Source: Catajapyx aquilonaris | Taxonomy: Eukaryota | DNA length: 64,000 bases | Assembly (NCBI GenBank): GCA_000934665.2 | Contig: KZ538367.1 | Span: 1-64,000 of the forward strand | Direction of reading: 5' to 3' | Part shown: piece by piece, positions 14,447 through 63,080 of the stretch | Position numbering within the stretch: position 1 is the first letter of the stretch | How the letters are laid out: each line of letters starts with the position of its first letter | Notes under the pieces: generated by a model | Seen by the model: the letters and a program-made list of their open reading frames with translations, nothing else | The model's database searches: none | Told to the model about the DNA's origin: nothing | Translations under genes and position numbers: made by a program

Positions 14447-16798
<2,352 letters not shown>

Positions 16799-26335: not shown

Positions 26336-27056
26336 GGTGCTCAATAAGACCACCAACAACTCTACAGCAAATAATGAAAGCGCATTTCCACATTCGCTGA
26401 AATGAGCATTTCCCGATCGTGCTGGGTGATCAGCTGAACATTTCGTCACTGTCGGCCTGTATACTACGAGGCATGCAAAGCTCGTACACTGTACAGAACA
26501 ATACACAATAATTATTAGACCGCGGACACATTTCCTTATTTCAGCAATCATGGCCATAATTGCGACAGGGTATAATTTATTTCATCGATGTTCAAGATGC
26601 TCGACTGATTTCGTTGCCGCTGTAAAAGGTCTGCCCCAACAGAATTAATAAATTACTAGCAGGGTCGAGCAGGGTACCCGGCGTTGATTGCCCGGGTATA
26701 TGTTGGGGTGCTGGGGTAAAGGTACCGGGTACGTATATGTTTTAGGAAGTTTGTTTGTATAAATTTGCGTTCCATATACACTCGAAACTCGATATTCCCC
26801 AAAATAGGCCTCATTATAAGTCACAATAAGCCAAAGTTTGTCACTATCTGTGATAGATTACCTCCTTCGGTTATAGTCGACGCAGATTCTAACGCAGATA
26901 TTGGAGAAAAGAGGAGTGCGGATAGAGTTGGCCCCTGAGGAAAAACTGCACAGCCATGTGTTTTTTTCCGTGAATTTTCGACCCCTTCACCCCCCAACCC
27001 CGCCTCACACCCCCACATAGTTCCATATATGTTTGCCCTGAAGAACTTTAATGTAT

Positions 27057-39771: not shown

Positions 39772-40188
39772 TAAGCAACGATTTTTAGCCTTTTTATTGC
39801 GTGACGCCGGGATTTCCCATCTGCCGAAGAGAGACCAGCTCTACTATGATATTAAAATATATATAGCCCCAAGACGTTGACCTGACGTACGCCATGTCGC
39901 GAATGACGAAGGCAAGACGCCGGATGTGTGTATACATAACAGAATGTGTTGCCAAACATTTTTTTATCCCTCTTGTATAGCACTGTCGTAATTCTGTTCA
40001 AGTGTGCTTCTCGAGTGCGCTCTGTGAGAGAAAGATGGACAATAAATGCATGGGTGTTAATAACGAAGGACTGGTCGTGTTTTCCATTATTATGTTCCTT
40101 GTTATATGATGAGTGTTGTGTGTGCAGTACTTTAACTATAATGAGATGGACCCAGAGGTATGTTTGTATTAGGCGCTCGTGACGCCCT

Positions 40189-40310
40189 GTCACGTGATGA
40201 GAAGATGGCTTCCGGTGCCTGCGCCAAGAAAGAACCTAGGCTGCCCCCCAGCGCCGCCAGTCGTCCGCCGGGTGCAAGCAACGGTCATGTGACGGAAGAA
40301 GTGACGTCAC
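40189..40310 (+). promoter_or_regulatory. Dynein heavy chain proximal promoter motifs
   Basis: E-box palindrome TCACGTGA (40190-40197), YY1-like AAGATGGC (40202-40209) and CRE palindrome GTGACGTCAC (40301-40310), all within 300 bp upstream of ATG 40474. Confidence 0.5.
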
Positions 40311-40473
40311 GCCAGCCAGAGGGGTGTTGGCTAGTCTCTGGTCACCTACCTTTCTGTTCTGTTTCGAGGTCACAACCTCTCTCTCTCTCTGTTGGTTTGA
40401 CCTTTTGACCCAGCGAGTAGTAGAAGGCAGAGGAGGGCAGGGTCCGTCCCACCCACACAGACAGACGGACACC

Positions 40474-43400
40474 ATGCAGCAGCAGTCGTCCGGGGCGACA
40501 ACGGCCGAGGGAGAGGATGTGGGCGGCCCCGGGGCAGGGCCGGCGGTGGTGGAGACCCCTCGGTTCGTGTCCTACCTGAGGAGGCTGGCCTGCCTGCATC
40601 TGGAGGAGGCCGAGTGGGCATCGGAGGATGGGCAGCCGCCGAATAAGGGGCAGCAGGCCCTGGAGCAGCTCCTGGCCGACAGGGCCAACCTGGACTGCAT
40701 CAGGAGGTTCCTCTCCGACCCGCAGGCCAGGGCACTCCTGCTCCAGAGGACGTCCAACAAAGGTACTCGCTCTCTGCCATGGCCCCAATGCACACACACA
40801 GCCTGATTGCCTTCCTTTTTATTCCAGAGGAGGAGAGTGTTCAGGGCGAAGAGGGCAAGGAGGAGGAAGGGATTGTCACCTACCAGCTGTCCACTGAAGT
40901 GGGATTCTCAAGCACGCGGGCCACGGCCTTGGTCCTGCTGAAGCGAGGCGCTGTTGTGGAGGCGGACAAGGGCCTCCCTGCCCAGCTGCGCACCGTGCTT
41001 CTCTCGGATGGCTCCCCGTACGAGACCTTGCACGCGTACGTGTCCGGATGCGTTGCACCCTTCTTCAAGTCATACGTCAAGGAGAGTGGACGGGCAGACA
41101 GAGACGGAGACAAGATGGCACCCTCCGTGGAGAAGAAAATTGCGGAGCTGGAGATGGGGCTGATGCACCTCCAGCAGAACATTGAGATACCCGAGATATC
41201 CCTAGCGGTGCATCCTGTCATTGCGCAGCTCATCCGAAAGGCAGCCGAGGAAGGAAGGAAGGCTCGCGTGTCTGACCTGGGTGACAGAGCGGAAGACTCG
41301 GTGCTCCTGAACCAGCTGCAGAACGGGGTCAACCGCTGGATCAAGGAGATTCAGAAGGTGACCCGTCTCGAGAGGGATCCCTCCTCGGGAACGGCCCTGC
41401 AGGAGGTCAGCTTCTGGCTGAACCTGGAAAGGGCCCTGCTGCGAATTCAGGAGAAAAGAGAGAGTCTTGAGGTCGCACTCACCCTTGATGTGCTCAAGCA
41501 CGGGAAGAGGTTTCATGCCACTGTCTCCTTCGACACAGACACAGGTAAGCATGCGCACTAGGGTTGAGTAATTAGGAGGAAACAATTATTGCTTGGCATG
41601 TCTGAATCAACATTTCTTTCTCTCCAAAGGTCTGAAGCAAGCCCTGTCCACGGTGAATGATTACAACCCTCTGATGAAGGACTTCCCCATCAACGACCTC
41701 CTGTCGGCCACTGAGCTGGAGCGTGTCCGCATGGCCCTGCAGGGGATCTTCACTCACCTGCGCAAGATCCGCAACACCAAGTACCCCATCCAGCGTGCCC
41801 TGCGCCTTGTGGAGGCCATCTCCAGAGACCTGATGGCCCAGATGCTCAAGGTGCTTGGCACCAGGCGCATGATGCACATCCCTTTCGAGGATTTTGAGCG
41901 GGTTGCGTCTCTCTGCCAGGACGTGTTTTCTGCATGGGATGATGAGTATGACAAACTGCAAGGGTTACTCAGGTTAGTACACTTTATTAACATTTCCCTG
42001 TCACTTCCTGCTTGAATTCTTTGTAATGATACTAATGCGGAATGCTGCTCAACAGGGACATTGTGAAGAAGAAGAGGGACGAACACCTGAAAATGGTCTG
42101 GAGGGTTGCTCCAGCCCACAAGAGGCTCCAAGCCCGCCTGGAGCACATGCGCAAGTTCCGCAGGCAGCATGAGCAGCTGAGAACAGTTATTGGGAGAGTG
42201 CTGCGGCCTCAGCAAGGAGGCCAGGGTCAAGGGGAGGCCACAGATGGGCAGCAGCCAGGAGGAGAGGAGGGAGGTGATGCCTCTGTGTCTTCAGGAGGGG
42301 ACTCGGGACACCCTTCCCTGGACTGGACAGACGCCACTGCAATTGAGGAGGTCAACATCGCTTACGAGAATGTCAAGGAGGTCGACTGCCTTGACATTGG
42401 TAAGGCCACTCGCTTGTGTGACCCTTATCCATTGGCAGTTATGTGAATTATGGTGTTGATTTGACCTGCGTGTAATTTATTCCCAGGCAAGGAAGGAGCG
42501 GAGGCATGGGAAGCGGCAGTGCGGCGTTACGAGGAACGCATTGACCGTGTGGAGACACGCATCACAGCTCGTCTCCGAGACCAACTGGGAACGGCCAAGA
42601 ATGCCAACGAGATGTTCCGCATCTTCTCCCGCTTCAACGCCCTGTTTGTCCGCCCACACATTCGTGGAGCCATCCGTGAATACCAGACCCAGCTGATCCA
42701 GCGTGTCAAAGATGACATTGAGGCACTTCACGAGAAGTTTAAGGTGCAATATCCGGCCAGCAAGTGCTGCAAGATGTCTCATATGAGGGACCTCCCACCT
42801 GTGTCCGGCTCAATCATTTGGGCGCGCCAGATTGATCGCCAACTGGGGGCATACCTGAGGAGGGTTGAGGACGTGTTGGGTCGCGGATGGGAGAACCACA
42901 TCGAGGGACAGAAGCTGAAGGCAGACGGAGACAGCTTCAGAGCTAAGCTGAATGCGCAGGAGATATTCGACGAGTGGGCCAGGAAAGTGCAGGCCAGGAA
43001 TCTGGGTGTTTCGGGAAGAATCTTTGCTGTTGACAGCCAGAGATCTAGGTCAGTCTGTGGGAGGTGAAACGGTTTCTCTTGATGTTTTCCTAGACGTTCC
43101 ATAACTGGTAAATTTTTGCAGATCTGGTAGAGGAGGAAGTGTGCTGAAGCTGAAGGTGAACTTCCTTCCCGAGATCATTACCCTGTCGAAGGAGGTGCGC
43201 AACCTCAAGAACCTCGGGTTCCGTGTCCCTCTGGCTATAGTGAACAAGGCCCACCAGGCGAACCAGCTCTACCCGTTTGCAATCTCCCTGATTGAGAGTG
43301 TCCGCACCTATGAGCGGACCCTGGAGAAGGTGGAGGACAAGTCCAGTGTGCTCATGCTGGTTGCGGGTGTGAGGAGGGAGGTGCAGGCCCTGATTGGAGA

Positions 43401-46400
43401 GGGGATTGGACTGGTGTGGGAATCGTACAAGCTGGATCCATACGTGCAGAGGCTGGCCGAGGCAGTGTTTGGGTTCCAGGAAAAGGTTGACGACCTCCTG
43501 GTCACCGAGGAGCAGGTAAGGACACGTGTGAGACTGAAAAGCAGCTGGATGCTGAGACAATTCCGTGTTTTCAGGTTGAAGCAGATGTGCGCTCCCTAGC
43601 AACATGTGCCTACTCAGCCAATACTTTCGCCGATGTTCTCGGCAAGATCCAGCGGGCTGTGGATGAGCTGAGCCTGAAGCAGTACTCCAACCTGGGTGCT
43701 TGGGTGTCCAAGTTGGACGAGGAGGTGGAGGCTGTGCTGGCTGCTCGACTGGAGGCTGGCATAAAGGCCTGGACACGAGCACTGCAAGGGGAGCGGGATC
43801 CAGGGATGGATCTCAGCATGGACACTGATGCGCCAGACAAGCCCGCCCACCGTCCTGGTGGAGATCCACAGGTACCTCCCAACGCCCATTTGATTCTGTT
43901 TGTACTAATGGAGATCCTCTGCTCATTTCGTAGCCTGTCTGTGGAAAGGCTGTTGTGCTGTGTAATAAGTAGTGCTTGTCTTCTTTCACAGCTGCAAGTG
44001 TTGGTGCACGAGGTGCGCATCACAAATCAGACCATGTACTTGCACCCAAGTGTGGAGGAGGCCCGCCTGCAGATCATGCAGCAGATGTTTGCCTGGCAGG
44101 CCATCGTGACCTCCCAGCAGCGCATCCAGTCCACTAGATACCAGGTCGGCCTGGAAAGGGCATCCTCCTCACAGGCCCAGAAGACGTACCGCAACCTGTC
44201 CTCACGCCTCCCGGCAGGAGCTGCTGTCCTGGAAAAGGCATACGAGGCGGTTGAAACGTGTGTGGCAGATGTTCATGAGTACGTCGCACGTTGGCTGTGC
44301 TATCAAGCCTTGTGGGACCTGCAGCCAGAGTCCCTGTATGGTCGGCTTGGAGAAGATGTTGGCATATGGATGCGATGCCTGGCCGACATTAAGGCAGCTA
44401 GGGCCACGTTTGACACTGCAGATACCCGCCGCGCATTTGGTCCTGTGGTGGTCGACTATGCCAAAGTGCAGAGCAAGGTGTCACTCAAGTACGACTCGTG
44501 GCATCGTGAGGCCCTGGGCCGCTTTGGGTCGCTCTTGGGGGCTGAGATGAGCCGCTTCCATGGGCAGGTTTCGCAGTCCAGGTCTGAATTGGAGCGCCAG
44601 AGCATTGAGGCATCAAGCACATCTGAAGCAGTGGGCTTCATTACCTACGTGCAGCGCCTGAAGGCACAGATGCAGGCATGGAGCCAGCGAGCGGAGCAGT
44701 ACAGGTCGGGCCAGCGCCTGCTGGAGAGGCAGCGCTTCCAGTTCCCTGCTGGATGGCTGCATGCAGACCACCTGGACGGAGAGTGGTCTGCCTTCAACGA
44801 GATCATCCGACGCAAGGATGCTGGGATCCAACAACAGGTGGCCAGCCTGCAGGCCAAGATTTTGGCCGAGGACAAAGTGGTGGAGGCCAGGACCAAGGAG
44901 TACCTGGTCGAGTGGGAAAGGAGCAAGCCAGTCGCCGGACAACTCAGACCAGATGAGGCCTTGCAGAGAATCCAGGTGAGGAGGTGTCACTCGTGATGCT
45001 TGAACACAATTCGAGGGGTTTTGCGGAAGAAGCAAAAGCCTAATCGGTTATATCCTCCTTTAGGTGTTTGAGGGCAAGTACTCTCGGCTGAAGGATGAGC
45101 GAGACAATGTGGCGAAGGCTAAGGAGGCCCTTGAGATCCAAGGAGGCGGACTTGCTTCAGGCGAGCATCTGCAGGTGGCTCTGGAGGAACTGCAGGATCT
45201 GAAGGGAGTTTGGTCGGAACTGGGAGGAATCTGGGAGCAGATTGAGGAGCTGAAGGAAACCGCCTGGCTCTCCGTGCAACCTCGCAAGCTACGCCAGCGA
45301 CTGGACGCCCTTCTGACCCAGCTTAAATCTCTGCCAGCCAAACTGCGTCAGTATGCCTCTTACGAGCATGTGAGGGGCGTGCTGCAGGGCTACACTCGTG
45401 CCAACCTCCTGGTGGTTGAGCTGAAGTCAGACGCCCTGAAGGAGCGTCACTGGAAGCAGCTAATGCGGCAGCTCAGGGTTCAGTGGGTCCTCTCCGACCT
45501 GACCCTGGGGCAGGTCTGGGATGTTGACCTGGCACAGAATGAGGCTGTGGTTAAGGACGTGATTTCCGTGGCCCAGGGAGAAATGGCCCTGGAGGAGTTC
45601 TTGAAGCAGGTTCGTGAGTCATGGCAGGGCTACCAGCTGGACCTGGTCAACTACCAGGGCAAGTGCAGGCTGATCCGCGGCTGGGACGAGCTCTTTGGCA
45701 AGGCGAAGGAGCACACCAACAGCGTGGCTGCCATGAAGCTCAGTCCGTATTACCGGGTGTTTGAAGAAGAGGCTCTGGCCTGGGAGGAGAAGCTGAACCG
45801 CATCTCCGCCCTCTTTGACGTGTGGATTGACGTCCAGAGGCGCTGGGTGTACCTAGAAGGAATCTTCTCCGGGAGTGCAGACATCAAAGCCCTCCTGCCC
45901 GTTGAGACCTCCAGGTTTCAGAGCATAAGCGCAGAGTTCCTCGGACTCATGAAGAAGGTAGGTTCACCTCCCTAATTTGCTACGCACGTTTGCAATGATA
46001 TTGTTGATAACCCGGCACTTTCTTTTGCATTATTAGGTTGGCCGATCCCCAATGGTTGTGGATGTCCTGAACATACCTGGAGTGCAGCGTTCCCTGGAAC
46101 GCCTGGCTGACCTGCTAGCCAAGGTTCAGAAAGCCCTTGGAGAATATCTGGAGCGAGAGAGGTCATCTTTCCCACGCTTCTACTTTGTTGGTGATGAGGA
46201 CCTTCTTGAGATCATTGGCAACAGCAAGAACGTGGCCCGCCTGCAGAAGCACTTCCGCAAAATGTTTGCAGGGGTTGCGTCTGTCCTGCTAAGTCCGGAT
46301 GACACGTCGGTCACAGGTGTGGCTTCCAGAGAGGGAGAAGAGGTGCAGTTTGAAATGCCTGTCAACACCGTTGAGCACCCAAAGATCAACGAGTGGCTGG

Positions 46401-49400
46401 CCATGGTTGAGCGGCAGATGCGGGTCACCTTGGCCTCGAGACTCTGCAAGGCTGTTCAGGATGTCCGCCGCTTTAAGGATGGGGCAATCGACCCACAGGC
46501 TTACATGGAGTGGTGCGACTCATTTCAAGCGCAAATTGTGGTGCTTGCGGCACAGATATCCTGGAGTGAGGATGTTGAAGCTGCACTGGAGAAGAAGAGC
46601 GGTGGGAAAGCACTGGAGAAAGTGTTGGCCCAGGTGGAGGCAACCTTGACGGTACTGGCGGATTCAGTCCTCCAGGAGCAGCCGGCGCTGCGTCGTCGCA
46701 AGCTGGAGCACCTGATCAACGAGTTTGTGCACAAGCGCACTGTCACACGTCAGCTTGTGTCTATGAAGGTGTCCAGTCCCCGTGACTTCCACTGGCTGTC
46801 CCAAATGCGGTTCTATTTTGACCCATCCCATCCGGACGTCCTGCAGCAATTGTCCATTCGTGTGGCCAACGCACGGTTCAACTATGGATTTGAGTACCTG
46901 GGAGTCCAAGACAAGCTGGTTCAAACCCCGCTCACTGATCGCTGCTACCTGACCATGACCCAAGCGCTTGAGGCACGTCTGGGTGGGTCACCATTTGGGC
47001 CAGCTGGCACCGGGAAGACGGAGTCAGTGAAGGCCCTGGGACACCAGCTGGGACGGTTCGTCCTGGTTTTCAACTGCGACGAGACCTTTGACTTCCAGGC
47101 CATGGGGAGGATTTTTGTTGGGCTGTGTCAAGTGGGAGCGTGGGGCTGCTTTGATGAGTTCAATCGACTGGAGGAAAGGATGCTTTCGGCCTGCTCGCAG
47201 CAGATTCAGACCATCCAGGAGGCACTCAAGTCGTCCTCGGTGGCTCAAAAGGAAGGAACGGCTCCTGGGGCCACACCTCCACCTCTAGGTGAGCACTTTG
47301 CACTTTTGGAAAGTGAACTTGAATCATTGCGTTGTGCACGTTTCAGGTGGCATAACAGTGGAGCTGGTGGGTAAGCAAGTACGGGTAAATCCAGACATGG
47401 CCATCTTCATCACGATGAATCCTGGATATGCGGGGAGGTCCAACCTGCCAGACAACCTGAAGAAGCTCTTCCGGTCGTTGGCCATGACTCAGCCGGACAG
47501 GCAGCTAATTGCGGAGGTGATGTTGTTCTCTCAGGGATTCCGAACAGCTGAGAAACTGGCCAGCAAGATAGTTCCATTCTTCAAACTCTGTGACGAGCAA
47601 CTGTCCAACCAGTCCCATTACGACTTTGGACTGCGAGCCCTCAAGTCCGTGCTGGTGTCTGCAGGGAACGTGAAGCGGGAGAGGATACAGAGGATAAAGA
47701 AGGAGGAGGAGTCGGTGGAGGAGTCGGCCATTGCGGACAACCTGCCGGAGCAGGAAATCCTGATCCAGTCTGTGTGCGAGACCATGGTGCCCAAGCTGGT
47801 GGCGGAGGACATCCCGCTGCTCTTCTCTCTGCTGTCCGACGTGTTCCCTGGAGTGGCCTACACCCGGGCCAGGATGGAAGGACTCAAGGAGCAGATCAGG
47901 AGGGTCTGCAAGGAAGAGTACCTCGTCAGCGGGGAGGGGGAGGAGCAGGGAGGGGCCTGGATGGAAAAGGTCAGTCTCGTCCACACTCCTTGTGTTCCTC
48001 TCGGCTCCCAATGTCAAGGTGCGCTTTAGGTTAGAAGTAGTGGACCAGCCAGAAATTAGTATGACAAAGTATCACTGTCGTAAGCTTAAAGCATTAAAGG
48101 TGATGCCTAGAACCGAAAGTTGTGATGTCATGGCCATACGATGTATACCTAGGTAGCAGCTTGCAGTATAGTAACAGAATCGAATGAAAGAGAGCTCAAT
48201 GCATTGGAGGTGCCGGAGAAAGAACTGATGCATTCAGCTCTTTAAGTGTACTTAGCTGCAGTTGCATTATTTTCAACCCTGCATTTACGTGCATGACGTT
48301 GAACTCATTATGCCTGTGAGGGAGCATGGCGCAATCTGGCATGACGGATTGGACCTGTGCGTCGCATCAGTAGATGTGGTACTTTGAAGGAGAGAGTACC
48401 TTGAATTGGGAGCGGATAGAGTAGTTTTTTTGGGCGGTAGAGTTAGGTGGGTTGGGTGACTAATACTGTTTGCTTCTCCCACCCCTGGACACTGACAAAA
48501 AAGGGGGAGTCTTGGTGCGAGAAGGTAGGCCCCACCCCCCTTTAAAACCCCCTGAGAATTGAATCCCTCGACTTTGTGTGGTGGTGTGCCTCCTGCTGGG
48601 TCGTGACGCTGTTTTCTGAATCACAGGTGCTGCAACTGTACCAGATCAGCAGCCTGAACCATGGCCTGATGATGGTGGGTCCTTCTGGTTCTGGAAAGTC
48701 AACTGCCTGGAAGGTCCTCCTCAAGGCCCTGGAGCGACTGGAGGGCACCGAGGGAGTGGCCCATGTGATCGATCCAAAGGCCATCTCCAAGGAAGCGCTC
48801 TACGGCACCCTGGATCCCAACACGCGGGAGTGGACGGACGGACTGTTCACCCACGTGCTCAGGCGAATCATCGACAACGTCAGGGGTGAGATAGGGAAGC
48901 GCCAGTGGATCATATTTGATGGAGACGTGGACCCAGAGTGGGTTGAGAACCTCAACTCCGTACTGGATGATAACAAACTGCTGACCCTCCCTAACGGAGA
49001 AAGGTTGTCCCTTCCGCCCAACGTCAGGATCATGTTTGAGGTGCAGGACCTTCGGTATGCCACCCTGGCCACTGTGTCCAGGTGTGGTATGGTTTGGTTC
49101 TCTGAGGACGTCCTTTCCACCGAGATGATCTTTGAGAACTACCTCTCCAGGTAAGCCACTTGTTAGCGTGGTGCGAACTCTACAGTAGTCGTCATCCTAT
49201 TGAAAGCAAGGGTCGTTCAGCTTCAAAGTTAATGGTCTGAACCAGTAATTTTTCAAGGGTTGGTTTTACGAGGTTCTGATTTTCTTGTGTGTCGGACAGG
49301 CTGCGCAACATTCCCCTGGAAGAAGCAGAGGAGGGTGACTCCTTGCTGATAATTCCACCTGTGGCCGGACGGGAGAAATCCGCAGCCAACGTGAAGGAGG

Positions 49401-52400
49401 AGGAAGGCGTGTCCTCAGTGCTGCAGCTGCAGCGTGAGATTGCAGCCGTCATCCACCCGTTCTTCGGCCCCGATGGCATGGTGGTCCGCTGCCTGGAGTT
49501 TGCTTCTCGGCAGGAGCACGTGATGGACTTCACCCGCCTCCGTGCACTCTCATCGCTCTTTTCCATGCTGAACCAGTCCGTCAGGAACGTCCTGCATTAT
49601 AACCACTCCCACCCAGATTTTCCTCTCACCCCGGACCAGCTTGAGAAATTCATACCAAAGGCTGTTGCATATGCTGTCCTGTGGAGCTTTGCCGGTGATG
49701 CCAAGCTGAAGGTCAGTTTGATATTTCCACTGTTATTCCCTTGAAATAATTGTAGCGCATTGGATGGTAACATCCACTTAACACCTGCTTAACACTCATT
49801 GCTTGTGGTGATTCTGCAGGTGAGAAGCGATCTTGGTGACTTCATTCGTTCCGTGGCTACCATTCCAATGCCGCCTGCCGGGTCAGGTCAGAGTGGCCCA
49901 CCAGTGGTGGACTATGAGGTGAACCTGCTCAGTGGGGAGTGGACTCCGTGGGCGGCCAGGGTGCCGCACGTGGAGGTGGAGACCCACAAGGTGGCTGCCC
50001 CTGACGTGGTTGTCCCCACCCTGGATACGGTCAGGCACGAGGCCCTCCTGTACACGTGGCTGGCTGAGCATAAGCCGCTGGTTCTGTGTGGACCGCCCGG
50101 GTCTGGAAAGACCATGACCCTGTTCTCGGCCCTGAGGGCTCTGCCTGACATGGAGGTCGTGGGGCTCAACTTCTCCTCAGCCACTACTCCCGAGCTTCTT
50201 CTCAAGACACTTGATCACTACTGCGAGTACAGGTTAGTCCCTGCACTGATTGTGTATCAGTAGTTTGCGACATACAAAGAGGACACGAGAAATCTCTGCT
50301 GTTCGCAACTTGTGTCAGAATATGTTGACCATGTGTTTCAGACGCACCCCAACCGGTATGGCCCTTGCCCCTGCGCAACTTGGGAAGTGGCTGGTCTTGT
50401 TCTGTGACGAAATAAACCTCCCGGAGCTGGACTCGTATGGCACCCAGAGAGTCATCTCCTTCCTTCGACAGCTGGTTGAGCACAAAGGGTTCTACCGCGC
50501 AGGAGACCAAGCCTGGGTCAGGCTTGAGAGGGTGCAGTTTGTCGGAGCATGTAATCCACCGACTGACCCGGGAAGGAAGCCCCTCAGCCACAGGTTCCTC
50601 AGGTGAGTCACACAAGTTGGTCACATTTGGTTTCAATGCGAAATTGGGCTCCCCATCTTTTTGAGCGATGCAATGTGCATTGGATGTGTTCACTTCCAGA
50701 CACGTCCCAGTGATATATGTGGACTACCCGGGCGAGACCTCCCTGAAACAAATCTACGGCACTTTCAACCGTGCCATGCTGCGGCTTGTTCCTCCTCTAC
50801 GCCCCTTTGCGGAACCCCTGACTGCAGCCATGGTTGACCTGTACCTGCAGTCGCAGGAGCGCTTCACTCAGGATATGCAGCCACACTATGTGTACTCACC
50901 TCGTGAGATGACGCGGTGGGTGAGAGGAATTTGCGAAGCCATCCGTCCCCTGGAGGAAGGGCTTGATTCGGAGGGGCTTGTGAGGCTCTGGGCGCACGAG
51001 GCCCTCAGGTTGTTCCAGGACCGACTGGTGGATGCGGAGGAGAGGAGCTGGACCGATCGCACGGTTGACTCAGTGGCCCACACTCACTTCCCAAATGTGG
51101 ACCTGAACAAGGCCTTGCAGAGACCCATCCTCTTCTCCAACTGGCTCAGCAAGAACTACGTGCCTGTCGAGAGAGACGAGCTGAGGGAGTACGTCCGTGC
51201 CCGACTCAAGGTCTTCTACGAGGAGGAGCTGGACGTCCCCCTGGTGCTGTTTGACCAGGTGCTGGAGCACGTCCTGCGCATCGACAGGATCTTCCGCCAG
51301 CCGCAAGGGCACTTGCTCCTCATCGGCGTGTCTGGCGCAGGGAAGACCACTCTCTCCCGCTTTGTGGCCTGGATGAATGGATTGTCAGTCTTCCAGATCA
51401 AGGTACACATCACTCAATGACCTGACGTTCACAGTAGACGTGAACAGGTACTTTTAGTAGTAGAGGGCGTTGTTGATGAGATTGTCACATGTTGGCGGGA
51501 GGGCTTAATTAATTGTCCTCAACGTGACAGGTGCACAACAAGTATCGAGGAGAGGACTTTGATGAGGACTTGCGTCAGGTGCTAAGACGGTCTGGGTGCA
51601 AGGATGAGAAGGTGTGCTTCATCCTGGACGAGTCCAATGTGCTGGAGTCTGGATTCCTGGAGAGGATGAACACCCTGTTGGCCAATGGGGAGGTTCCTGG
51701 CCTCTTCGAAGGAGACGAGTTCACAACTTTGATGACCCAGTGCAAGGAGGGAGCACAGAGGGAGGGGCTGATGCTGGATTCCAACGAGGAGCTGTACAAG
51801 TGGTTCACGCAGCAGGTCATGCGCAATCTGCACGTTGTCTTCACCATGAACCCATCCTCGGAGGGGCTCAAGGACAGGGCTGCAACGTCTCCTGCACTGT
51901 TCAATCGATGTGTTCTCAACTGGTTTGGGGACTGGTCGGACGCGGCACTCTTCCAGGTCAGTTTACTTCATGGCCATCTATTGCTGTGAAGAAGTTCTTC
52001 GTAAAGGAGCATTAGACTCGCAGTGATATTAATGAGGTAATAATTGCAGGTGGGTCGTGAGTTTACGGCCAAGATGGACCTGGACCGCCTGAGCTGGAGA
52101 TCTCCGGATGTGTTCCCCGCTGCTGCCCCAGCTCACGTTCTTCCACAGCCTCCGACGCATCGTGATGCTGTGGTGAATGCATTTGTGTACGTCCACCAAA
52201 CGCTGCATGGAGCCAATGCCCGACTGGGGAAGAGAGGAGGACGAACCATGTTTATCACTCCACGACACTACCTGGACTTCATCCAGCACTTTGCACGGCT
52301 CTATCACGAGAAGCGGGCAGAGCTGGAAGAGCAGCAGCTCCACCTGAACGTGGGCTTGACCAAGATAGCCGAGACTGTGGAGCAGGTGGAAGAGATGCAG

Positions 52401-55400
52401 CGTTCCTTGGCGGTCAAGTCCTTAGAGCTGCAGGCCAAGAACGAGGCTGCCAATGCAAAGCTGCGGCAGATGGTGAAGGATCAGCAGGAGGCCGAGCGGA
52501 GAAAGGTGCAGAGCCAGGAGATACAGGCCATGCTGGAGCAGCAAACCATCAAGATCGCACAGAAGAAGGAAGACGTCATGGCTGATCTGGCACAGGTCGA
52601 GCCTGCTGTCATCGAGGCGCAACAAGGTACAGTACCCGCTGCCATCACACACTGCTGACGTACGTTTACTCTTTGTGATGTCAGCATTGATGACAAACGT
52701 TGATATAATTCTTTTGCCATTAAGTGTCGCCTTCCGACAAAAGCAAGCTTGCAGAGGAATATCCACTGCAATAATACCTTTTCCGGAATCACTTTCACAA
52801 AAAAAAGGATTAGTGTCAATTATCACAGGTGCTTTTTCGAATTCACGACAAAGTGTTGATGAAACCCTCAGGATTATGTAAACTCTCTTGGCTTTTGGCT
52901 GCTGACCCCTTTCCCCCCCGCAACTAACATGAGCCCACTAAACAGCGGTGAAGTCAATAAAAAAGCAGCACCTGGTGGAGGTCCGCTCGATGGCCAATCC
53001 TCCAGTGATGGTGAAGCAAGCCCTGGAGTCCATCTGTCTCCTTCTCGGAGAGAATATTTCCGAGTGGAAGTCCATCAGACAGGTCATCCTTCGGGAGAAC
53101 TTCATCTCGACCATAGTCAATTTCAACACAGAAGACATGCAGTAATAATCTACAACCCCAGCTCTGAATTGCCCCCCACTTTTGCCCTCCAACCCCCTCC
53201 GCATGTTGCTGTTAATGAGTAGCGGTTGGTATGTTGTTTTGGTGTTGCATGGGACCCTTTCCTTTTATGCATGCAGCGGTCAAGTCGATAAAGAAGCAGC
53301 ATCTGGTGGAGGTGAAGTCAATGGCCAACCCTCCCATGCTGGTCAAGCTGGCCCTGGAGTCCATCCTCTTCCTGCTCGGGGAGAGCGCCCTCGACTGGAA
53401 GGCCATCCGGGCGGTCGTCATGAGAGAGAACTTCATCTCGACCATTGTCAACTTCATCACTGAGGATATCACGTGAGTAGGAAAAGGGAGGAGGAGGCCT
53501 TGTCCGCAAGTGAGTCTAGTCTCTTGGTGTACTCTTTTTTTTCTACTACCCCATTTCCTCCTGCCTATGGAACATGGCATGTAGATGTACATTGTTTACT
53601 TCAAATGCTGCGTTACTGAAATTAAAAAAAAAGCATTAATTAGTGCAGAAATTCTGTGTACTGAAAGTTCTACATGTCGTAAATGGAGTTGGACCATTGC
53701 ATGCGGAAACCTGCTTTTCCCCCCACCCATTTTTTTTTTGTCGTGTGTAACCTAACGAGCAAGTACTCACCTAACGATGCATTTGCAGTGATGATGTGCG
53801 TGACAAGATGCGAAACCGCTACCTGAGCAACCCGGATTACAACTTCGAGAAGGTGAACAGGGCTAGCCTGGCATGCGGCCCCATGGTGAAATGGGCAGTG
53901 GCACAGATCAACTACGCGGACATGCTGAAGAGGGTGGAACCGCTCAGAGAGGAGCTGCGGTCGCTGGAGACGCAGGCGGAGGAGAAGAAGTCTCAGGCGG
54001 CAGAGATGCAGGGTGTGATTGCGCAGCTGGAGCGCAGCATCACGGCCTACAAGGAGGAGTACGCCCAGCTCATCTCTCAGGCGCAGGCCATCAAGACTGA
54101 CCTGGAGAGCGTCCAGGCCAAGGTGGACCGCTCCATTGCCCTCCTCAAGTCCCTGGGCATGGAGAGGGAGAGGTGGGAGGCTGGAAGCGAAACCTTCCGC
54201 GCTCAGATGGACACCATTGTTGGGGACGTCCTCTTGTCCGCTGCTTTCTTGGCCTACGCTGGGTACTTTGACCAGCATTACAGGCACTCCCTCTTCTCCA
54301 CCTGGAGCCAGCACCTGTCCAGTGCGGGAATCCTCTTCCGACATGATATCGCAAGGACGGAGTACCTCTCGGATCCAGACCAGAGGCTCAGGTCAGTCCT
54401 CGTGTTTTCATTGTAAGGCAAGAATGTAATCAACACTTTATTTTGCTGTCCCATCAGGTGGCAGGCGAATGCCCTCCCGACGGATGACCTCTGCACGGAG
54501 AATGCAATCATGTTGAAGCGCTTCAACCGCTACCCGCTGATAATCGACCCATCCGGGCAGGCTACAGAGTTCCTCATGAACGAGTTCCAGGAACGCAAGA
54601 TTACCAAGACCAGTTTCCTGGACGACTCTTTCAGGAAGAACCTGGAGAGTGCACTCCGCTTTGGCAACCCCTTGCTCGTCCAGGACGTGGAGAACTACGA
54701 CCCAATACTGAATCCGGTGCTGAACCGTGAACTGCGGAGGTCAGGAGGGCGTGTCCTAATCACTTTGGGTGACCAGGACATTGACTTGTCGCCATCCTTT
54801 GTCATATTCCTGTCGACACGTGACCCAACCGTGGAATTTCCTCCCGACGTGTGCTCGCGTGTCACTTTTGTCAACTTCACTGTGACGCGATCGTCCCTGC
54901 AGTCACAGTGCCTGGACCGGGTTCTGAAGGCGGAAAGGCCTGACATTGATGAAAAGCGACAAGACCTGCTGAAGCTTCAGGGAGAGTTCAGGCTGCGCTT
55001 GAGGCAGCTTGAAAAGTCTTTGCTTCAGGCACTGAATGATGCAAAGGGCAAGATCTTGGATGACGGCAGCGTGATTGCCACCCTGGAGACCCTGAAGCGA
55101 GAAGCGGCGGAGATCAGCCGCAAGGTGGAGGAGACGGACCTGGTCATGGGCGAGATTGAGTCTGCCTCCCAGCAGTACCTCCCTCTGAGCCAGGCCTGCT
55201 CCAACATCTACTTCACCATGGACAGCTTGCACCAGGTCCACCACCTGTACCAGTACTCTCTCAGCTTCTTCCTGGACATATTTGGGGCCGTGCTGCACTC
55301 CAACCCGCACCTGAATGGCATCCAGGACCACGACAAGAGGCTGGACATCATCACCAGTGACCTATTTGAAGTCTGCTACGAGAGGGTTGCCCGAGGGATG

Positions 55401-58080
55401 CTGCATGTCGACCGACTTGCATTTGCCATCCTCCTCTGCCGCATACACCTCAAGGTGAGTGCACTGGCTGGCCGTTGCTTGCAGAACACGTTTATATTTT
55501 TCTTGATTCCAGGGCAACCCATCTGAGGCGTCGTTTGAGGAAGAGTTCCAGCAGTTCCTTCGAGGTCGTGAGGGAGTGGCCACACCGCTGGGGCCTGATC
55601 CGGCCTCGTCCGACCTGGTGTCTGGGCTGAGCCAGGAGCAGCGCGAAGCTATGACTCGCTTGGCTTCCCGCCTGCACTCCTTCAGGCGCCTTCCGCAGAG
55701 AGTGGCTGAATGCCCTGACTTTGCCAGGTGGCTGCAGGCGTCCAGCCCAGAGTCTGATGTCCCAGAGATCTGGGAGGAACTAGCTGGCGACACATCCAAG
55801 GTGCGGCTGGCCATCATGCACCTGCTCATCGTCCAGGCATTCAGACCAGACAGGTTCGTAGCAGCGGAAAATTGTGGTTGGTGACATGACTAAATTTGCT
55901 GCTCATTCTCATTGCAGATTGATAGCGGCTGGGGAGAGGCTTTCAGCAGCTACTCTTGGCCCAGAGTTCATGGCTGCTGCCGAGAGAGAGCCTGACCTTA
56001 GACAGGTCGTGGACAAGGAGGTCACAGCTGCCACACCACTGCTGTTCTGCTCTGCACCTGGGTTTGATGCTTCGGCTCGTGTGGATGACCTTGCAGCTGA
56101 GCTGGGCCGACCCTTGGCCTCCATTGCCATTGGATCAGCGGAGGGCTTTGGGCAGGCAGATCGCGCCATCAACATGGCAGCCAAGTCTGGGCGATGGGTG
56201 CTGCTGAAGAACGTGCACCTGGCCCCGCAGTGGCTGCTTCAGCTGGAGAAGAAGCTTCACTCGCTCCAGCCACACTCCGCCTTCAGGCTCTTCCTCACCA
56301 TGGAGATCACGCCAAAGGTTCCAGCCAACCTGCTGAGATGTGGGCGCGTCTTTGTGTTTGAGCCTCCGCCTGGCATCAAGGCCAGTCTGCTGCGGACATT
56401 CAGCACCGTGCCTGCCTCCAGGATGATGCGCCCACCATCGGAACGTGCCCGGCTATACTTCCTGCTTGCATGGTTCCACGCTGTGGTGCAAGAACGTCTC
56501 AGGTATGTCATTGGCTCTTTTTGACGCCAGTTGGGTCAGAAAAGGTGTGACTGACGATGAACCAATTAATTTCGCAGATATGCGCCATTGGGTTGGGCCA
56601 AGAGGTATGAGTTTGGAGAGTCAGACCTGCGTGTGGCATGCGATACCCTGGACACCTGGGTGGACCAGGTGGCGATGGGAAGGACCAACTTGCCCCCAGA
56701 CAAGGTCCCGTGGGAGGCTGTCCGCACCCTGCTGGCAGAGTGCATTTACGGCGGGAAGATTGACAATGCATTTGACCAACGGCTTCTCGGAAGTTTCCTG
56801 GACAAGATGTTTACGGCCCGAGCTTTTGATTCCGACTTTGCGCTGGTGGCCAGCGTGGATGGTGGTACTGAAGGTGGACGCCACATTCTCATGCCTGAAG
56901 GTGTGAGACGAGACCAGTTCCTCCACTGGGTTCAGGCCCTCTCCGATCGCCAGACCCCGTCCTGGTTGGGTCTGCCCAACAACGCGGAGAAGGTGCTGCT
57001 GACCAACCGGGGCACGGATCTGATTGCCAAGCTGCTGAAGATGCAGATGTTGGAGGACGATGACGTTGATGATGTTCCAACCACGCCTGTAGCTGCTTCG
57101 CTCTCCCTGACTGGACCAGAGGAGGCAGGGCTCTCCAGCCTGGGCGCGTCTGATGGCAGGCCACCTTGGATGAGAGTGCTGCACACCTCGGCACAGACAT
57201 GGCTTGAAATGCTGCCCTTGTCACTGCAGGTATAAGGGGTCTCTCTCTCTATGTTGTGGCCTGGCTGTATCACTGTGCTTCATGGGTACCATTTCTCATT
57301 TTCCAGACCCTGCGACGCACTGTTGAGAACATCAAGGACCCGCTGTACCGTTACTTCGAGCGTGAGGTGACTTCCTGCTCGCGGCTCCTGTCTGAGGTGA
57401 GGCATGACCTGGAGGACGTGGTGCTGATATGCCGTGGTGAGAAGAAGCAGACCAATCACCACCGCGGGATGGTGAGCCAGCTGGTCAAGGGGATCCTGCC
57501 CCAGGGGTGGCGCAGGTACACCGTACCATCAGGATGCACTGCGATGCAGTGGGTGACCGACTTTGCAACCAGGGTGAGGCAGCTGCAGGGATGCTCCAAG
57601 TCTGTGGCGGAATCTGGAGGTGCTGCAGGGCTGAGGGGGGTCAGGGTCTGGCTTGGAGGGCTGTTCAACCCGGAGGCATACGTCACGGCCACGCGGCAGT
57701 GCGTGGCCCAGGCGAATGGGTGGCCCCTGGAGGAGCTGGCCCTGGAGGTGAGCGCCTCGGAGGAGGAGTCTGCGGGTCAGCAGATGGACAGCTGCAGCTT
57801 TGGAGTGTCCGGCCTGAAGCTGCAGGGAGCGGTCTGCAGGAGCAACCAGCTGCACCTGACCTCCACCATAATGACGGAGCTTGGCCTGACCCGCCTGCGC
57901 TGGTTCAGGGCCAGCCCGGGGCAGGACCTGAGCAAGGGCAAGATCACCCTCCCGGTCTACCTGAACGCCACCAGGGCAGAGCTGCTGTTCACCGTGGACC
58001 TCAACGTGGCCCCCAACCAGGACCCCCACTCCTTCTACGAGCGTGGCGTCGCCATCCTGGCCTCCACCGCACTCAACTAG
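40474..58080 (+). CDS. DYNC1H1: Cytoplasmic dynein-1 heavy chain (Dhc64C/DYNC1H1 ortholog), about 25 exons per transcript
   Basis: Consecutive ORFs joined by short GT-AG introns. Tail motif [21 protein letters not shown]-loops [24 protein letters not shown] and GVSGAGKT; stalk [31 protein letters not shown]-terminus [15 protein letters not shown]. Confidence 0.99.
48504..48524 (+). CDS. DYNC1H1: Candidate 21-nt alternative microexon of dynein heavy chain (GESWCEK)
   Basis: aag|GGGGAGTCTTGGTGCGAGAAG|gtaggc, phase 0-0, inside the gene's longest intron. It is preceded by branch-like TGACTAAT and a pyrimidine tract and resembles the upstream exon end GGAWMEK. Confidence 0.55.
52946..53141 (+). 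CDS. DYNC1H1: Dynein MTBD mutually exclusive exon A
   Basis: 196 nt, acag|CG...CA|gtaata. Encodes [65 protein letters not shown]. Confidence 0.93.
53277..53472 (+). CDS. DYNC1H1: Dynein MTBD mutually exclusive exon B
   Basis: 196 nt, gcag|CG...AC|gtgagt. Encodes [65 protein letters not shown]. Confidence 0.93.
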
Positions 58081-58673
58081 TCTTTCTTCTTAATAGTCTT
58101 TATTATAATGTATTCCATCAAGCTTCTTTGTTTGTTCCCCGGTTATTTTGCAGTCGCAAAGAGGTTATGGGCTTTAATCGTTCGATATTAAATGTTTGGT
58201 GTAGCACGCAACGTCTGGTCTTTCATTACAACTGCAGGCTTTTTTTTCATCGCTCGAGGAATGATAATAATAAATATTGTCTGTATGACCATCAATGGAA
58301 CAGTTGCTGATAATAAGCTGCTGTCCATGTAGCTGCTACCGGGAAATGGGGTGGTGGATTGCAGCAGCTGCGCGGTTTGCGATGATTTGCGTATGATCCC
58401 GACAGGTGGGGACACCGTTCGTCCATGGCTGTTTGTTTGTGGTTTCCGCGACGTCATTATACAGCATCTCTGACCACTGCGGGTCGTCTCCTGGCCAGAG
58501 AACCGGTTCCATTCCGCTCTCGTTGTTCTTCGTTCTAAATAATCCCCGTTGGTCAGGCCATGGAAGCTTGGTAGGTAGGTAGCTGCCCACTGCCGTTCGG
58601 GTCATCAGGTCAGACGACCCTGCTGGCTGGCTGGCTGGCAAGAAGAGAGTGTCTGCCATCTCCGTTCCAAGCC

Positions 58674-59873
58674 ATGGACGGCCACAGCGACGACCCACAG
58701 GTCAACACAGGTCAACAGGAGGCGGGACTGCTGACCCTGGTGGTGCGGTGGTCTGGGAAGGAAATCCCCCTCCCGCCTTTCCCCACCTCCGCCACCGTCC
58801 TCTCCCTCAAGGAGGCCATCACCACCGCCACTGGGGTCAGAGGGCACAGGCAGAAGCTGCTCAACCTCAAGCACAAAGGTACTGTGCCCACCATCCCACC
58901 CACCACGGAATATGAAACCTAGCTGCGGCCGTTCTTATAGGGAAAGCGGCGGAGGATGCCATCCTGCTGAGCGACCTCTCCCTGAAGCCAGGCTTCAAGG
59001 TGATGATGATGGGCTCCCTGGAGGTGGACATTGCAGAGGCAGGGGTCGTTCCAGAGGACGCTTCCGAGGTGGTCAATGACCTCGGAGGGAGCGAGGATGG
59101 GGCCGACGATCAGCCCGCTGTTGGGAAGGACGAGGAGGAGGAGGCCGCCCTCGAGAAAAGACAAGAGCACATCGACAAGGTAAGCACCATTCAGAGATGT
59201 GCTTGGCCGGATGATGATGACCATGTTGCTGTATTGGCAGGTGGCGAGACGCGTCCGTGAATACCAACCACGCATGCTGGGCCAGCCACGTCCGGGAAAG
59301 AAGCTGCTGGTCCTCGACGTTGACTACACCCTATTTGATCACCGCTCAACGGCACAGAGTGCGGCGGAGCTCATGCGACCCTTCCTGCACGAGTTCATGT
59401 CGTCTGCCTACCTGCGATACGACCTGGCCATCTGGTCGGCAACGTCCATGCGATGGATAGAGGAGAAGATGCGACTGCTTGGAGTCAGCTCCTCCACCAG
59501 CTACTCCCTTCTCATGGTCGTGGATGCAGGCGGGATGATAACGGTCCACACTTCCAGGCTGGGAGTGGTCCAGTGCAAGCCCCTGGGCGTCATATGGGGT
59601 CAGTTCCCAGGGGTCTACACCAAGGAGAACACCATCATGGTGGATGACGTTCGCCACAACTTCCTGATGAACCGCCGCAATGGGCTGCGCATCAGGGCCT
59701 TCCGCCGGGCACACCGCAACCGCCAGAGCGACAGGCAGCTGCCCATGCTGGCCAAGTACCTGGAGCTCATTTCCGACGAGAAAGACCTGTCCGCCCTGGA
59801 CCACTCCAGATGGGAAAAGACTGTGAGGGAGAAGCATCCTGATCCAGACGGGGACATTCCCCATGAGCTGTAG
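58674..59873 (+). CDS. UBLCP1: Ubiquitin-like domain-containing CTD phosphatase 1
   Basis: Exons 58674-58878, 58941-59179 and 59241-59873. UBL domain (LVVRWSGKE..RQKLLNLKHKGK..KVMMMGSLE) and HAD motif LVLDVDYTLFDHRS, plus IWSATSMRWI and NTIMVDDVRHNFLMN. Confidence 0.96.
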
Positions 59874-61910: not shown

Positions 61911-62192
61911 CGATTTACCTTGATTTGAACTATAAACAGGCAAAACCTGCCTGTTTTACCTTAACAATTATTGGAAATGAATGTATGGCCCCATGGAAAC
62001 CCCTGCCCACTAATTATCCGGAATGAGCATTGTTGCGTGTATGATTGGCCCTCAATAATGGGTTTGAATTGAGCGCCAAACGATGGTATCGCTCGTGCGT
62101 GTACCGCCATCGTTCATGGCGATGATGACGATGCTGCGGTAGTAGTAATAATCGTTGGTGTCTCCCTCCCTCCCTCCCTCCCCCCTTCCAAG
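61911..62192. promoter_or_regulatory. Probable bidirectional promoter
   Basis: Only 282 bp separate the divergent start codons at 61910 (-) and 62193 (+). Confidence 0.6.
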
Positions 62193-63080
62193 ATGGCGTC
62201 CCGTGGAGGATCCCGCCAGCATGTGGAGGCCCTGGTCAGGTGCGGGCTCAGGGCCTTCTCAGGGCTCGGGGCAGCAGGGCCGACACCACCAGGAGGGGCT
62301 GGAGCAGGGCCTGCAGAGGAGGCTCCTGTCCCACCGCCCCACCTCCTGAAGGCGCTGATGGAGGCCGCTGGGAAGGTCAAGGCCGAGGACCTGGGTCTGT
62401 CGGACAGGTACGTCAGGGACAGGTTCTACCCACCCGACGACGCCACAGCCGACGCCACCGCCAGCAGCACCACGTCGGCTGGCAGGAGGCGAAGCAGCAG
62501 CGGGAGGGCCGCGCCTCCAATAGCACCAGCCGCCTACATTCCCATCTACGAGGACCAGCAGGTCTGTTCGCCGCATCTCCTTATTGTTCCTTCAATGCTT
62601 CTCTCCCTGAACTCCGTGCTTGGGTATTCGCAGGTGACCATGGGGATATTCGTGCTGCGTGACGGCTGCAGCATCCCCCTCCACAACCACCCCAACATGA
62701 CTGGGATCCTGAGGGTCCTCCTGGGGAGGGTGAGGATGCAGCCCTACAACCCCCTGCCCACCCGCGGGACCCCCTCCTCCACCCTCACGCTGGTTGTGCA
62801 GCCGCCCGTGGACCTGGGCGCGGGGGATCTGCCAGTCCTCCTCACCCCGACCAGCGCCAACCTGCATGAGATCACCACCCAGGGAGACCACCCTGCCGCT
62901 TTCCTGGACATACTGGGCCCTCCCTACAGCCCTGGCCAGGGACGGGACTGCACCTACTACACACCCATCTCACCCCCTGCGGAGGAGGAAGGGGGCCTCA
63001 CCACCCTCAGGGTCAGGCCAACCAACCCTCCAACCACCTTCTGGACGGAGCACTGGCCTTACGAGGGGCCTCCGCTCTAG
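62193..63080 (+). CDS. ADO: 2-aminoethanethiol (cysteamine) dioxygenase
   Basis: Exons 62193-62561 and 62634-63080. Cupin 3-His site IPLHNHPNMTG...NLHEI, plus AAFLDILGPPY and RDCTYY. Confidence 0.93.
   Translation: MASRGGSRQHVEALVRCGLRAFSGLGAAGPTPPGGAGAGPAEEAPVPPPHLLKALMEAAGKVKAEDLGLSDRYVRDRFYPPDDATADATASSTTSAGRRRSSSGRAAPPIAPAAYIPIYEDQQVCSPHLLIVPSMLLSLNSVLGYSQVTMGIFVLRDGCSIPLHNHPNMTGILRVLLGRVRMQPYNPLPTRGTPSSTLTLVVQPPVDLGAGDLPVLLTPTSANLHEITTQGDHPAAFLDILGPPYSPGQGRDCTYYTPISPPAEEEGGLTTLRVRPTNPPTTFWTEHWPYEGPPL

Follow-up and report, generated by a model that had tools for sequence, protein, structure and literature searches.

Does the cytoplasmic dynein-1 heavy chain gene of Catajapyx aquilonaris provide its motor with one microtubule-binding domain (MTBD) or with two interchangeable versions? 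The question is raised by 64,000 nucleotides (nt) of contig KZ538367.1 from this species, a stretch that we call the window and whose forward-strand positions serve as coordinates throughout. In it, two homologous exons of 196 nt, exon A and exon B, stand side by side in the part of the gene that encodes the MTBD. The usual view of dynein-1 is that of a single heavy chain whose variety comes from accessory chains and cargo adaptors. We found two intact exons, both under selection and both spliced to a common downstream exon, and it is quite probable that they are a true mutually exclusive exon pair, giving two isoforms that differ at 17 residues.

Anatomy and splicing of the exon pair

The exons and introns concerned, delimited in part with contigs of the public run X1 described below, are the following.

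52050..52626, + strand: upstream constitutive exon (end of AAA4, stalk coil CC1), AG 52048-49, phase-1 end, GT 52627-28
52627..52945, + strand: intron 1, 319 nt, 5' of exon A, GT..AG
52946..53141, + strand: exon A, 196 nt, first alternative MTBD exon (predicted helices H1-H4), AG 52944-45, GT 53142-43
53142..53276, + strand: intron between A and B, 135 nt, GT 53142-43, AG 53275-76
53277..53472, + strand: exon B, 196 nt, second alternative MTBD exon, AG 53275-76, GT 53473-74
53473..53788, + strand: intron 3, 316 nt, 3' of exon B, GTGAGT donor, CTAAC-containing acceptor region
53789..54391, + strand: downstream constitutive exon (rest of the MTBD including H6, stalk coil CC2), placed by frame, Pfam MT and X1

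The upstream exon, whose start is uncertain by about 3 bases (one X1 contig covers 52147-52618 and another is loose-ended at 52047), ends in IEAQQ plus one base. In exons A and B alike, the two first bases complete this split codon and the two last bases open the next one, so that the phases are the same, and the frame continues from either exon into the downstream exon, which starts at 53789 after an AG and leads into DDVRDKM. Joining upstream exon, A and downstream exon gives an open frame, as does joining upstream exon, B and downstream exon; inclusion of both A and B, or of neither, leads to a frameshift with stops. The length of 196 nt, 3x65+1, is not a multiple of three. The two exons differ at 49 of 196 bases, and their identity is 75% at both the DNA and the protein level. 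Sixteen of the 64 full codons and the 3' junction residue (H/T) differ in meaning, which makes 17 of 66 residues, and 18 more codons differ synonymously only. Reading and computation thus confirmed the arrangement described in the initial annotation, with its equal phases, intact AG and GT sites and alternative open frames, as well as its codon counts and the motifs that it quoted.

When one exon was searched against the whole window by tblastn, the sole match was the other exon (75% identity, E 8e-30), a likeness well above chance. No third copy was found within the window, and tblastx over 40000-58500 at E 1e-5 revealed no other duplicated exon of the gene. The direct repeat starts within 3 bases of the exon starts, the exact repeat families stop inside the exons, and the introns flanking A and B are unlike each other. 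By the criteria for mutually exclusive clusters of Pillmann et al. (2011), A and B are adjacent internal exons of equal length that share splice sites and phases, are homologous and encode the same structural part. In intron 1, about 25 nt separate a CTAAC-like branch motif from the AG and, by our own reading, the pyrimidine tract lies 5' of that motif; a good pyrimidine tract precedes the exon B acceptor.

Evidence for splicing came from X1, a public run of one study and of unrecorded kind (no RNA label), which comprises 32 million letters kept as contigs and contains 0.43 of the sampled window words. Its contigs were aligned over 52000-54500, where seven of seven pieces were at least 99% alike to the window. 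One contig joins 53141>53789 (647 nt skipped, GT..AG, depth 3.9), and a second joins 53472>53789 (316 nt skipped, GT..AG, depth 2.9). A third removes a 66-nt GT..AG intron at 54392-54457, which shows how short introns here can be. These GT..AG joints and the removal of the 66-nt intron indicate that X1 contains spliced RNA-derived sequence. A separate contig starts exactly at 53789, a bubble that is expected because the two isoforms have the downstream exon in common. In intron 1, X1 depth is zero from 52672 on, and the bin 52588-52671, which includes the end of the upstream exon, has a depth of 1.83. The donors of A and B share one acceptor, and transcripts with exon A skip exon B; the prediction that both exons splice to the downstream exon was borne out by one junction each.

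How is the choice kept exclusive? Steric hindrance does not apply, because the intervening intron has 135 nt and the same gene removes an intron of 66 nt. At the transcript level, X1 has one contig that runs from A past B into the downstream exon and one that runs from B into that same exon, and exclusivity of the productive mRNA follows from the frame. We propose that one 196-nt exon was duplicated in tandem long ago, which would have produced two versions of the segment from the last CC1 residue through H1-H4, and that each mRNA would take one version between the same flanking exons, yielding two heavy-chain isoforms. The reading frame, at least, would enforce exclusivity: with an exon length that three does not divide, taking in both exons or leaving out both would lead to premature stops and presumably to nonsense-mediated decay. 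RNA pairings with intron 3 that mask splice sites may contribute. In 4 of 18 tests of a splice site against an intron, at most 3 of 200 mononucleotide shuffles paired as well. Three of these four pairings are with intron 3, formed by the A donor, the B acceptor and, as a self-overlapping case, the downstream acceptor; the fourth joins the B donor to intron 1. Three inverted repeats involve intron 3.

53126-53146 / 53639-53659: inverted repeat, exon A donor / intron 3
53264-53281 / 53692-53709: inverted repeat, exon B acceptor / intron 3
53598-53615 / 53772-53789: inverted repeat, intron 3 / downstream acceptor

These repeats may represent competing structures, and we regard them as a lead only.

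The encoded segment and the selection acting on it

Along 40647-58077 of the + strand, Pfam families occur in dynein order, DHC_N1, DHC_N2, AAA_6, AAA_8, MT, AAA_9 and Dynein_C, with some exons left unscanned. The open reading frames (ORFs) that carry them are as follows.

40647..58077, + strand: predicted cytoplasmic dynein-1 heavy chain gene by Pfam and similarity (minimum extent, true 5' end unmapped)
40647-41558, + strand: ORF with DHC_N1 (Pfam)
46037-47371, + strand: ORF with DHC_N2 and AAA_6 (Pfam)
52044-52625, + strand: ORF with AAA_8 and MT (Pfam)
53790-54413, + strand: ORF with MT (Pfam MT positions 176-340)
54417-55523, + strand: ORF with AAA_9 (Pfam)
57208-58077, + strand: ORF with Dynein_C (Pfam)

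Exon A matches human DYNC1H1 3296-3358 with an E value of 1.5e-25, and exon B matches 3296-3359 with an E value of about 1e-24. Compared with DYNC1H1 chains and mouse MTBD structures, the MTBD exons gave E values of about 1e-25 to 1e-27, whereas DYNC2H1 gave 0.04-0.7 with the same exons, and axonemal chains no better than 1e-5. The AAA5 exon is 84% identical to an Apis cerana record and about 80-81% identical to tick and isopod records, the maximum for any record being 85%; the arthropod records in this range of 80-85% are named 'dynein heavy chain, cytoplasmic'. The window thus belongs to an arthropod that has no near kin among the named records. Judged by these similarities, the gene is the cytoplasmic dynein-1 heavy chain gene (DYNC1H1 / Dhc64C orthologue), in agreement with the identity first proposed for it.

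To place the differences between the two versions, residues are indexed from the first full codon (V, index 1), and mouse numbering equals 3293 plus the index. Folded alone, exon A has helices at residues 6-13, 20-32, 40-47 and 52-57, and exon B has the same four; the mean predicted local distance difference test score was 69.1 for A and 77.6 for B, and these single-exon folds were used for helix limits only. With moderate confidence, we equate the four predicted helices with H1-H4. The duplicated exon comprises the last residue of CC1 and four MTBD helices, so that the DYNC1H1 matches and the folds support the earlier assignment to the end of CC1 and about H1-H4. H6 and both coiled-coil arms are constant between the isoforms, and the swap is limited to H1-H4, with H5 unmapped.

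The 17 differences are spread unevenly over this segment. One lies at the end of H1 (R/K13), five in H2 (20, 21, 24, 30, 31), four in the H2-H3 loop (36-39), three in H3 (42, 45, 47), one after H3 (48), none in H4 and three in the tail after H4 (60, 64 and the junction residue). The basic residues K5, K6, K23, K41, R44 and R49 are identical in A and B, and the net charge of the two looks equal by a hand count from the translations. Version B is more hydrophobic at 24, 38, 42, 45 and 60, where it has L, L, A, A and I vs Q, S, S, Q and N in version A.

In the available passages of two structural papers, the KK at 5-6 corresponds to mouse K3298/K3299, which lie on H1 at the tubulin interface (PMC4987762, PMC6629372), and among the basic H1/H3 residues of the exon these are the only ones cited there as interface residues. 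E3289 in CC1 and R3382, E3378 and E3387 in H6 are discussed alongside them in the same passages (PMC4987762, PMC6629372), and these four residues map to the constant flanking exons. H1 together with CC1 is described as the only part of the MTBD that moves much upon binding (PMC6629372, in the passage concerned), so the swapped piece includes the part that moves and the greater share of the domain core, minus H6. Given the identical main basic residues of H1 and H3, the equal-looking charge and the placement of the differences, it is most likely that the isoforms would differ quantitatively and not in kind. Candidate differences would be the microtubule on or off rate, the preference for a tubulin isotype or modification, and the coupling of H1/CC1 movement to stalk registry. 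The initial annotation spoke of swapping the motor's foot; an exchange of H1-H4 stands, and the phrase is overstated in that H6, the coiled-coil arms and the basic H1/H3 residues remain constant.

Both versions of this segment bear the marks of selection. Nei-Gojobori estimates for exon A vs exon B were 0.165 for nonsynonymous divergence (dN) and 1.09 for synonymous divergence (dS), giving a dN/dS of 0.15, and the differences fall at the three codon positions as 14, 9 and 26. When 20,000 randomly mutated copies of equal divergence were generated, none (0/20,000) had 16 or fewer residue changes, and 79% gained a stop. We further compared A and B with 118 other unique DHC1 segments (from 140, with 22 excluded for indels). 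Both keep all the positions that are invariant in the 118, namely I4, E11, P18, P19, W40 and F52. Rare states are V20, Q24, I37, E39, L48, M64 and H65 in exon A and K13, M20, L30, F31, L38, V47 and I60 in exon B. Since the invariant positions are kept and each copy has about 6-7 rare states, neither looks like a decaying version of the other. Both copies are under purifying selection, as had been suspected, and the ratio for the pair is not near 1.

Occurrence in other animals and relation to known systems

Is this exon pair peculiar to the window? DNA fetched around relatives in metagenome contigs yielded 79 loci, of which 12 have two same-strand copies (a count that excludes query segment P0205_1, derived from a different heavy-chain region); ten are complete pairs and two have the first copy cut by the contig end. 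In all copies of the ten complete pairs the AG falls at the same codon position and the GT fixes the length at 196 or 199 nt, each 1 modulo 3; the copies in two-copy loci lie 69-1197 nt apart.

L002, L006-L009, L050, L057, L072, L073, L076: metagenome loci with tandem MTBD-exon pairs

A single copy was found in 64 of the 79 loci, with at least 1000 nt on both sides in 27 of these 64. In three nearly identical loci, L020 (93-167), L021 (112-186) and L024 (124-198), a weak 25-residue match to the exon middle lies 203 nt upstream of an intact copy; it could be a decayed or very divergent second copy. Identity within pairs elsewhere ranges from 36 to 52 of 64, and that of the window pair is 48 of 64. 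Window exons A and B both belong to the conservative kind; insect-type loci differ in that their upstream copy has diverged. The first copies of L057, L072 and L076 are alike, as are their second copies, and the same holds between L009 and L073; these pairs are therefore older than the split of their carriers.

Protein records point to further carriers. Searching with exon A brought up four that had double scores, which are gene calls reading through two tandem copies.

P0001: two-copy read-through record, fish Coryphaenoides rupestris
P0002, P0003: two-copy read-through records, fish-like
P0004: two-copy read-through record, second copy sea-slug-like

The frog record P0207 (Ranitomeya) carries the second, fish-like type, and the sea-slug record P0165 (Plakobranchus) carries the second type as in P0004. 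Among named partial records, Apis cerana and Bactrocera dorsalis have the type without insertion and Oryctes, Parnassius and Danaus the inserted type, and exon type differs between Araneus and Caerostris and between Rhipicephalus and Amblyomma. The window exons do not have the one-residue insertion of the beetle and butterfly records, and in loci L006-L008 it is the upstream copy that the Apis type matches. A search with residues 1-60 of the Apis cerana record found no further alternative-type record.

Among the 150 matches listed when a representative library was searched with exon B, seven proteins were matched in more than one stretch. P0001 is the sole two-exon read-through among them; P0064 was rejected as a two-exon protein, since it contains a partial repeat, and so were P0282 and P0288, in each of which an intron interrupts a single exon. 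P0230, P0283 and P0354 were rejected as two-exon dyneins, being unrelated MTBD-repeat proteins. These three (937, 746 and 459 amino acids) have 2 to 5 tandem repeats resembling MTBD H1-H4, which are near-identical in P0230. Turtle record P0361, of low identity, was rejected as an alternative exon in favour of a gappy canonical model.

A quick tree of 145 rows and a careful tree of 43 rows, built on 66-67 alignment columns, do not resolve whether all pairs stem from one duplication. The three MTBD-repeat proteins, P0230, P0283 and P0354, and ten cut or interrupted segments (P0288, P0282, P0328, P0346, P0100, P0325, P0060, P0300, P0355 and P0352) were excluded from them. In approximately unbiased tests on the 43-row tree, neither a clade of A and B (p 0.314) nor a clade of all alternative copies with A (p 0.289) was rejected.

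To our knowledge, no second exon of such a type is known in mammals. The main text of a human survey does not mention DYNC1H1 (PMC5740500). In a review of the dynein subunit families, splice isoforms are covered for the intermediate chains, and heavy-chain splicing did not come up when its available text was searched by word (PMC1331979). For Drosophila Dhc64C, several maternally deposited isoforms are noted in the passage available (PMC5147784).

The closest known case is SmDHC1 of Schistosoma mansoni, for which Pillmann et al. (2011) report a mutually exclusive exon in the relevant passage (PMC3228551); a DHC1 mutually exclusive exon is also mentioned by Kollmar (2016) in the part available (PMC5100056). 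Like the window gene, SmDHC1 belongs to the DHC1 family and has an extra, strongly homologous exon of equal length whose terminal codons are both split, and it was judged mutually exclusive since DHC alignments admit one copy only (PMC3228551). It differs in coming from another phylum, and its exon may or may not correspond to the window's. These two were the only mentions of DHC1 mutually exclusive exons found, and neither, in the passages concerned, names the MTBD, a distribution or a function; subscription journals were not covered.

Other systems offer looser parallels. The metagenome and fish tandem pairs have the same exon as the window, with the same acceptor codon position and 196 or 199 nt. 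The arthropod muscle myosin heavy chain gene (Mhc) is similar in that, within one motor gene, equal-length homologous exclusive exons replace parts of the motor domain. Isoform-specific mechanics are known for Mhc. It is unlike the window in its motor superfamily and track and in having several clusters of several exons, whereas the window has one cluster of two. Daphnia magna Mhc is cited beside SmDHC1 in the passage mentioned (PMC3228551). In axonemal dyneins such as DNAH7, changes within the small MTBD alter lattice engagement, according to the available text of Lacey et al. (2019) (PMC6629372); there, however, variety arises from separate genes and an added flap, whereas in the window it arises from splicing in one gene and consists of substitutions only.

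The novelty initially hoped for is lowered by the printed DHC1 exclusive exon (PMC3228551, PMC5100056, as far as their passages go) and by the same tandem pair in many other animals. Since the kind is already known and widespread, the window does not represent a new kind; this exon pair is of a known but barely described kind, to which the window adds a member.

Weighing the readings

Several points weigh against a true mutually exclusive pair, which we nevertheless consider quite probable. X1 cover is zero over the 5' parts of the exons (52946-53010 and 53277-53358) and over both upstream junctions, with gaps at 52672-53007 and 53176-53343, and we infer the skipping of A in B-containing transcripts from the frame. 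X1 is a single run of one study, not recorded as RNA, which may come from the organism of the window, and the short side of each joint has only 30 letters. One of its contigs, 53486-53722 (depth 2.2), lies wholly inside intron 3, so the run is not pure mature mRNA. Exon B replaces C30, found in 113 of the 118 compared segments, by L and L31, found in 86, by F, which could mean relaxed constraint. No docking or selector structure stands out, and pairing between whole introns does not exceed chance, with 126, 158 and 193 of 200 shuffles matching or bettering the duplex energies. Finally, we found no measured functional difference between the isoforms in the literature, of which subscription journals were not covered.

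The contig inside intron 3 is also an observation in its own right; it may represent unspliced precursor, a retained intron or library DNA.

Some of these points would fit a gene that works with one MTBD, one of the two copies being a minor, unproductive or slowly decaying duplicate that is occasionally spliced and supplies no protein that is needed. Its evidence is that the splicing data come from a single low-depth run, that the exon A acceptor is weak, with its displaced pyrimidine tract, and is followed at the other end of the exon by a GTAATA donor, that the core changes C30L and L31F of exon B are rare (1 and 2 of 118), and that the single copies in 64 of 79 loci imply that one copy suffices in many animals. 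However, at a dS of about 1.1 a decaying copy is hard to reconcile with the lack of any stop or indel and with a dN/dS of 0.15, a similarity that 0 of 20,000 random copies reached. The rare states are spread evenly over A and B with the invariant positions kept, and the depths of the two joints are similar, 3.9 and 2.9, although contig depth is a poor measure. Moreover, L057/L072/L076 and L009/L073 show that both copies have been kept over long times in other lineages. It is thus unlikely that one copy is minor, unproductive or decaying.

We consider it very unlikely that the pair is mainly a dosage switch, in which inclusion of both exons or of neither would give degraded frameshifted transcripts and splice choice would set the level of dynein and not which isoform is made. 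Double inclusion and double skipping do both give premature stops, and double inclusion would be sterically possible, the 135-nt intron being spliceable. Such a switch does not account, however, for the conserved protein sequence of A and B or for the length class being kept in ten of ten complete pairs elsewhere, and the joints 53141>53277 and 52626>53789 that it calls for are unreported in X1, though cover is missing there.

That a fault of assembly, or the placing of two collapsed haplotypes side by side, gave rise to the tandem copy is hardly credible, a general possibility that the initial annotation had already thought unlikely and that is opposed by the 25% divergence of the copies, by unrelated introns between and around them, by independent X1 contigs that match each copy without difference and join each downstream, and by the same arrangement in 12 of 79 unrelated contigs.

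The surroundings of the dynein gene contain the following frames; the tubulin gene among them is on the opposite strand, at a distance of about 25 kb on the upstream side.

14450-16138, - strand: long open frame with Pfam Tubulin (E 5e-32) and Tubulin_C (2e-53)
19667-21253, + strand: BTB-domain frame
24284-26581, - strand: open frame of 766 residues, no Pfam family
28241-30493, - strand: weak Lig_chan match, ionotropic receptor-like
59184-59870, + strand: NIF-type phosphatase
62073-63077, + strand: PCO_ADO (cysteamine dioxygenase-like) frame just 3' of the dynein gene

Returning to a mutually exclusive pair as the preferred reading, we tentatively extend it to a broader one, which we regard as possible rather than probable: the dynein-1 of many animals may be a two-foot system, with alternative H1-H4 modules that are old or were re-invented repeatedly, isoforms of different microtubule behaviour and deployment by tissue or stage. 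Its examples would be the window arthropod, the insect-type and other metagenome contigs, the chelicerate and mollusc records, the fish and the frog. The swapped piece has 65 residues and identical flanks, and therefore defines a clear experiment, for which chimeric MTBD constructs and single-molecule assays exist (PMC6629372, in the text available). Since the pair or its alternative types occur in bee, fly, spider, tick, mollusc, fish and frog records, the question is approachable in tractable animals. A conserved, selected and expressed choice between two versions of the half of the MTBD that contacts the microtubule would add variety at the interface between motor and track. If the two-foot reading is true, affinity, run length and the choice of tubulin isotype or modification would be regulated at the track interface, outside the adaptor-centred view of dynein.

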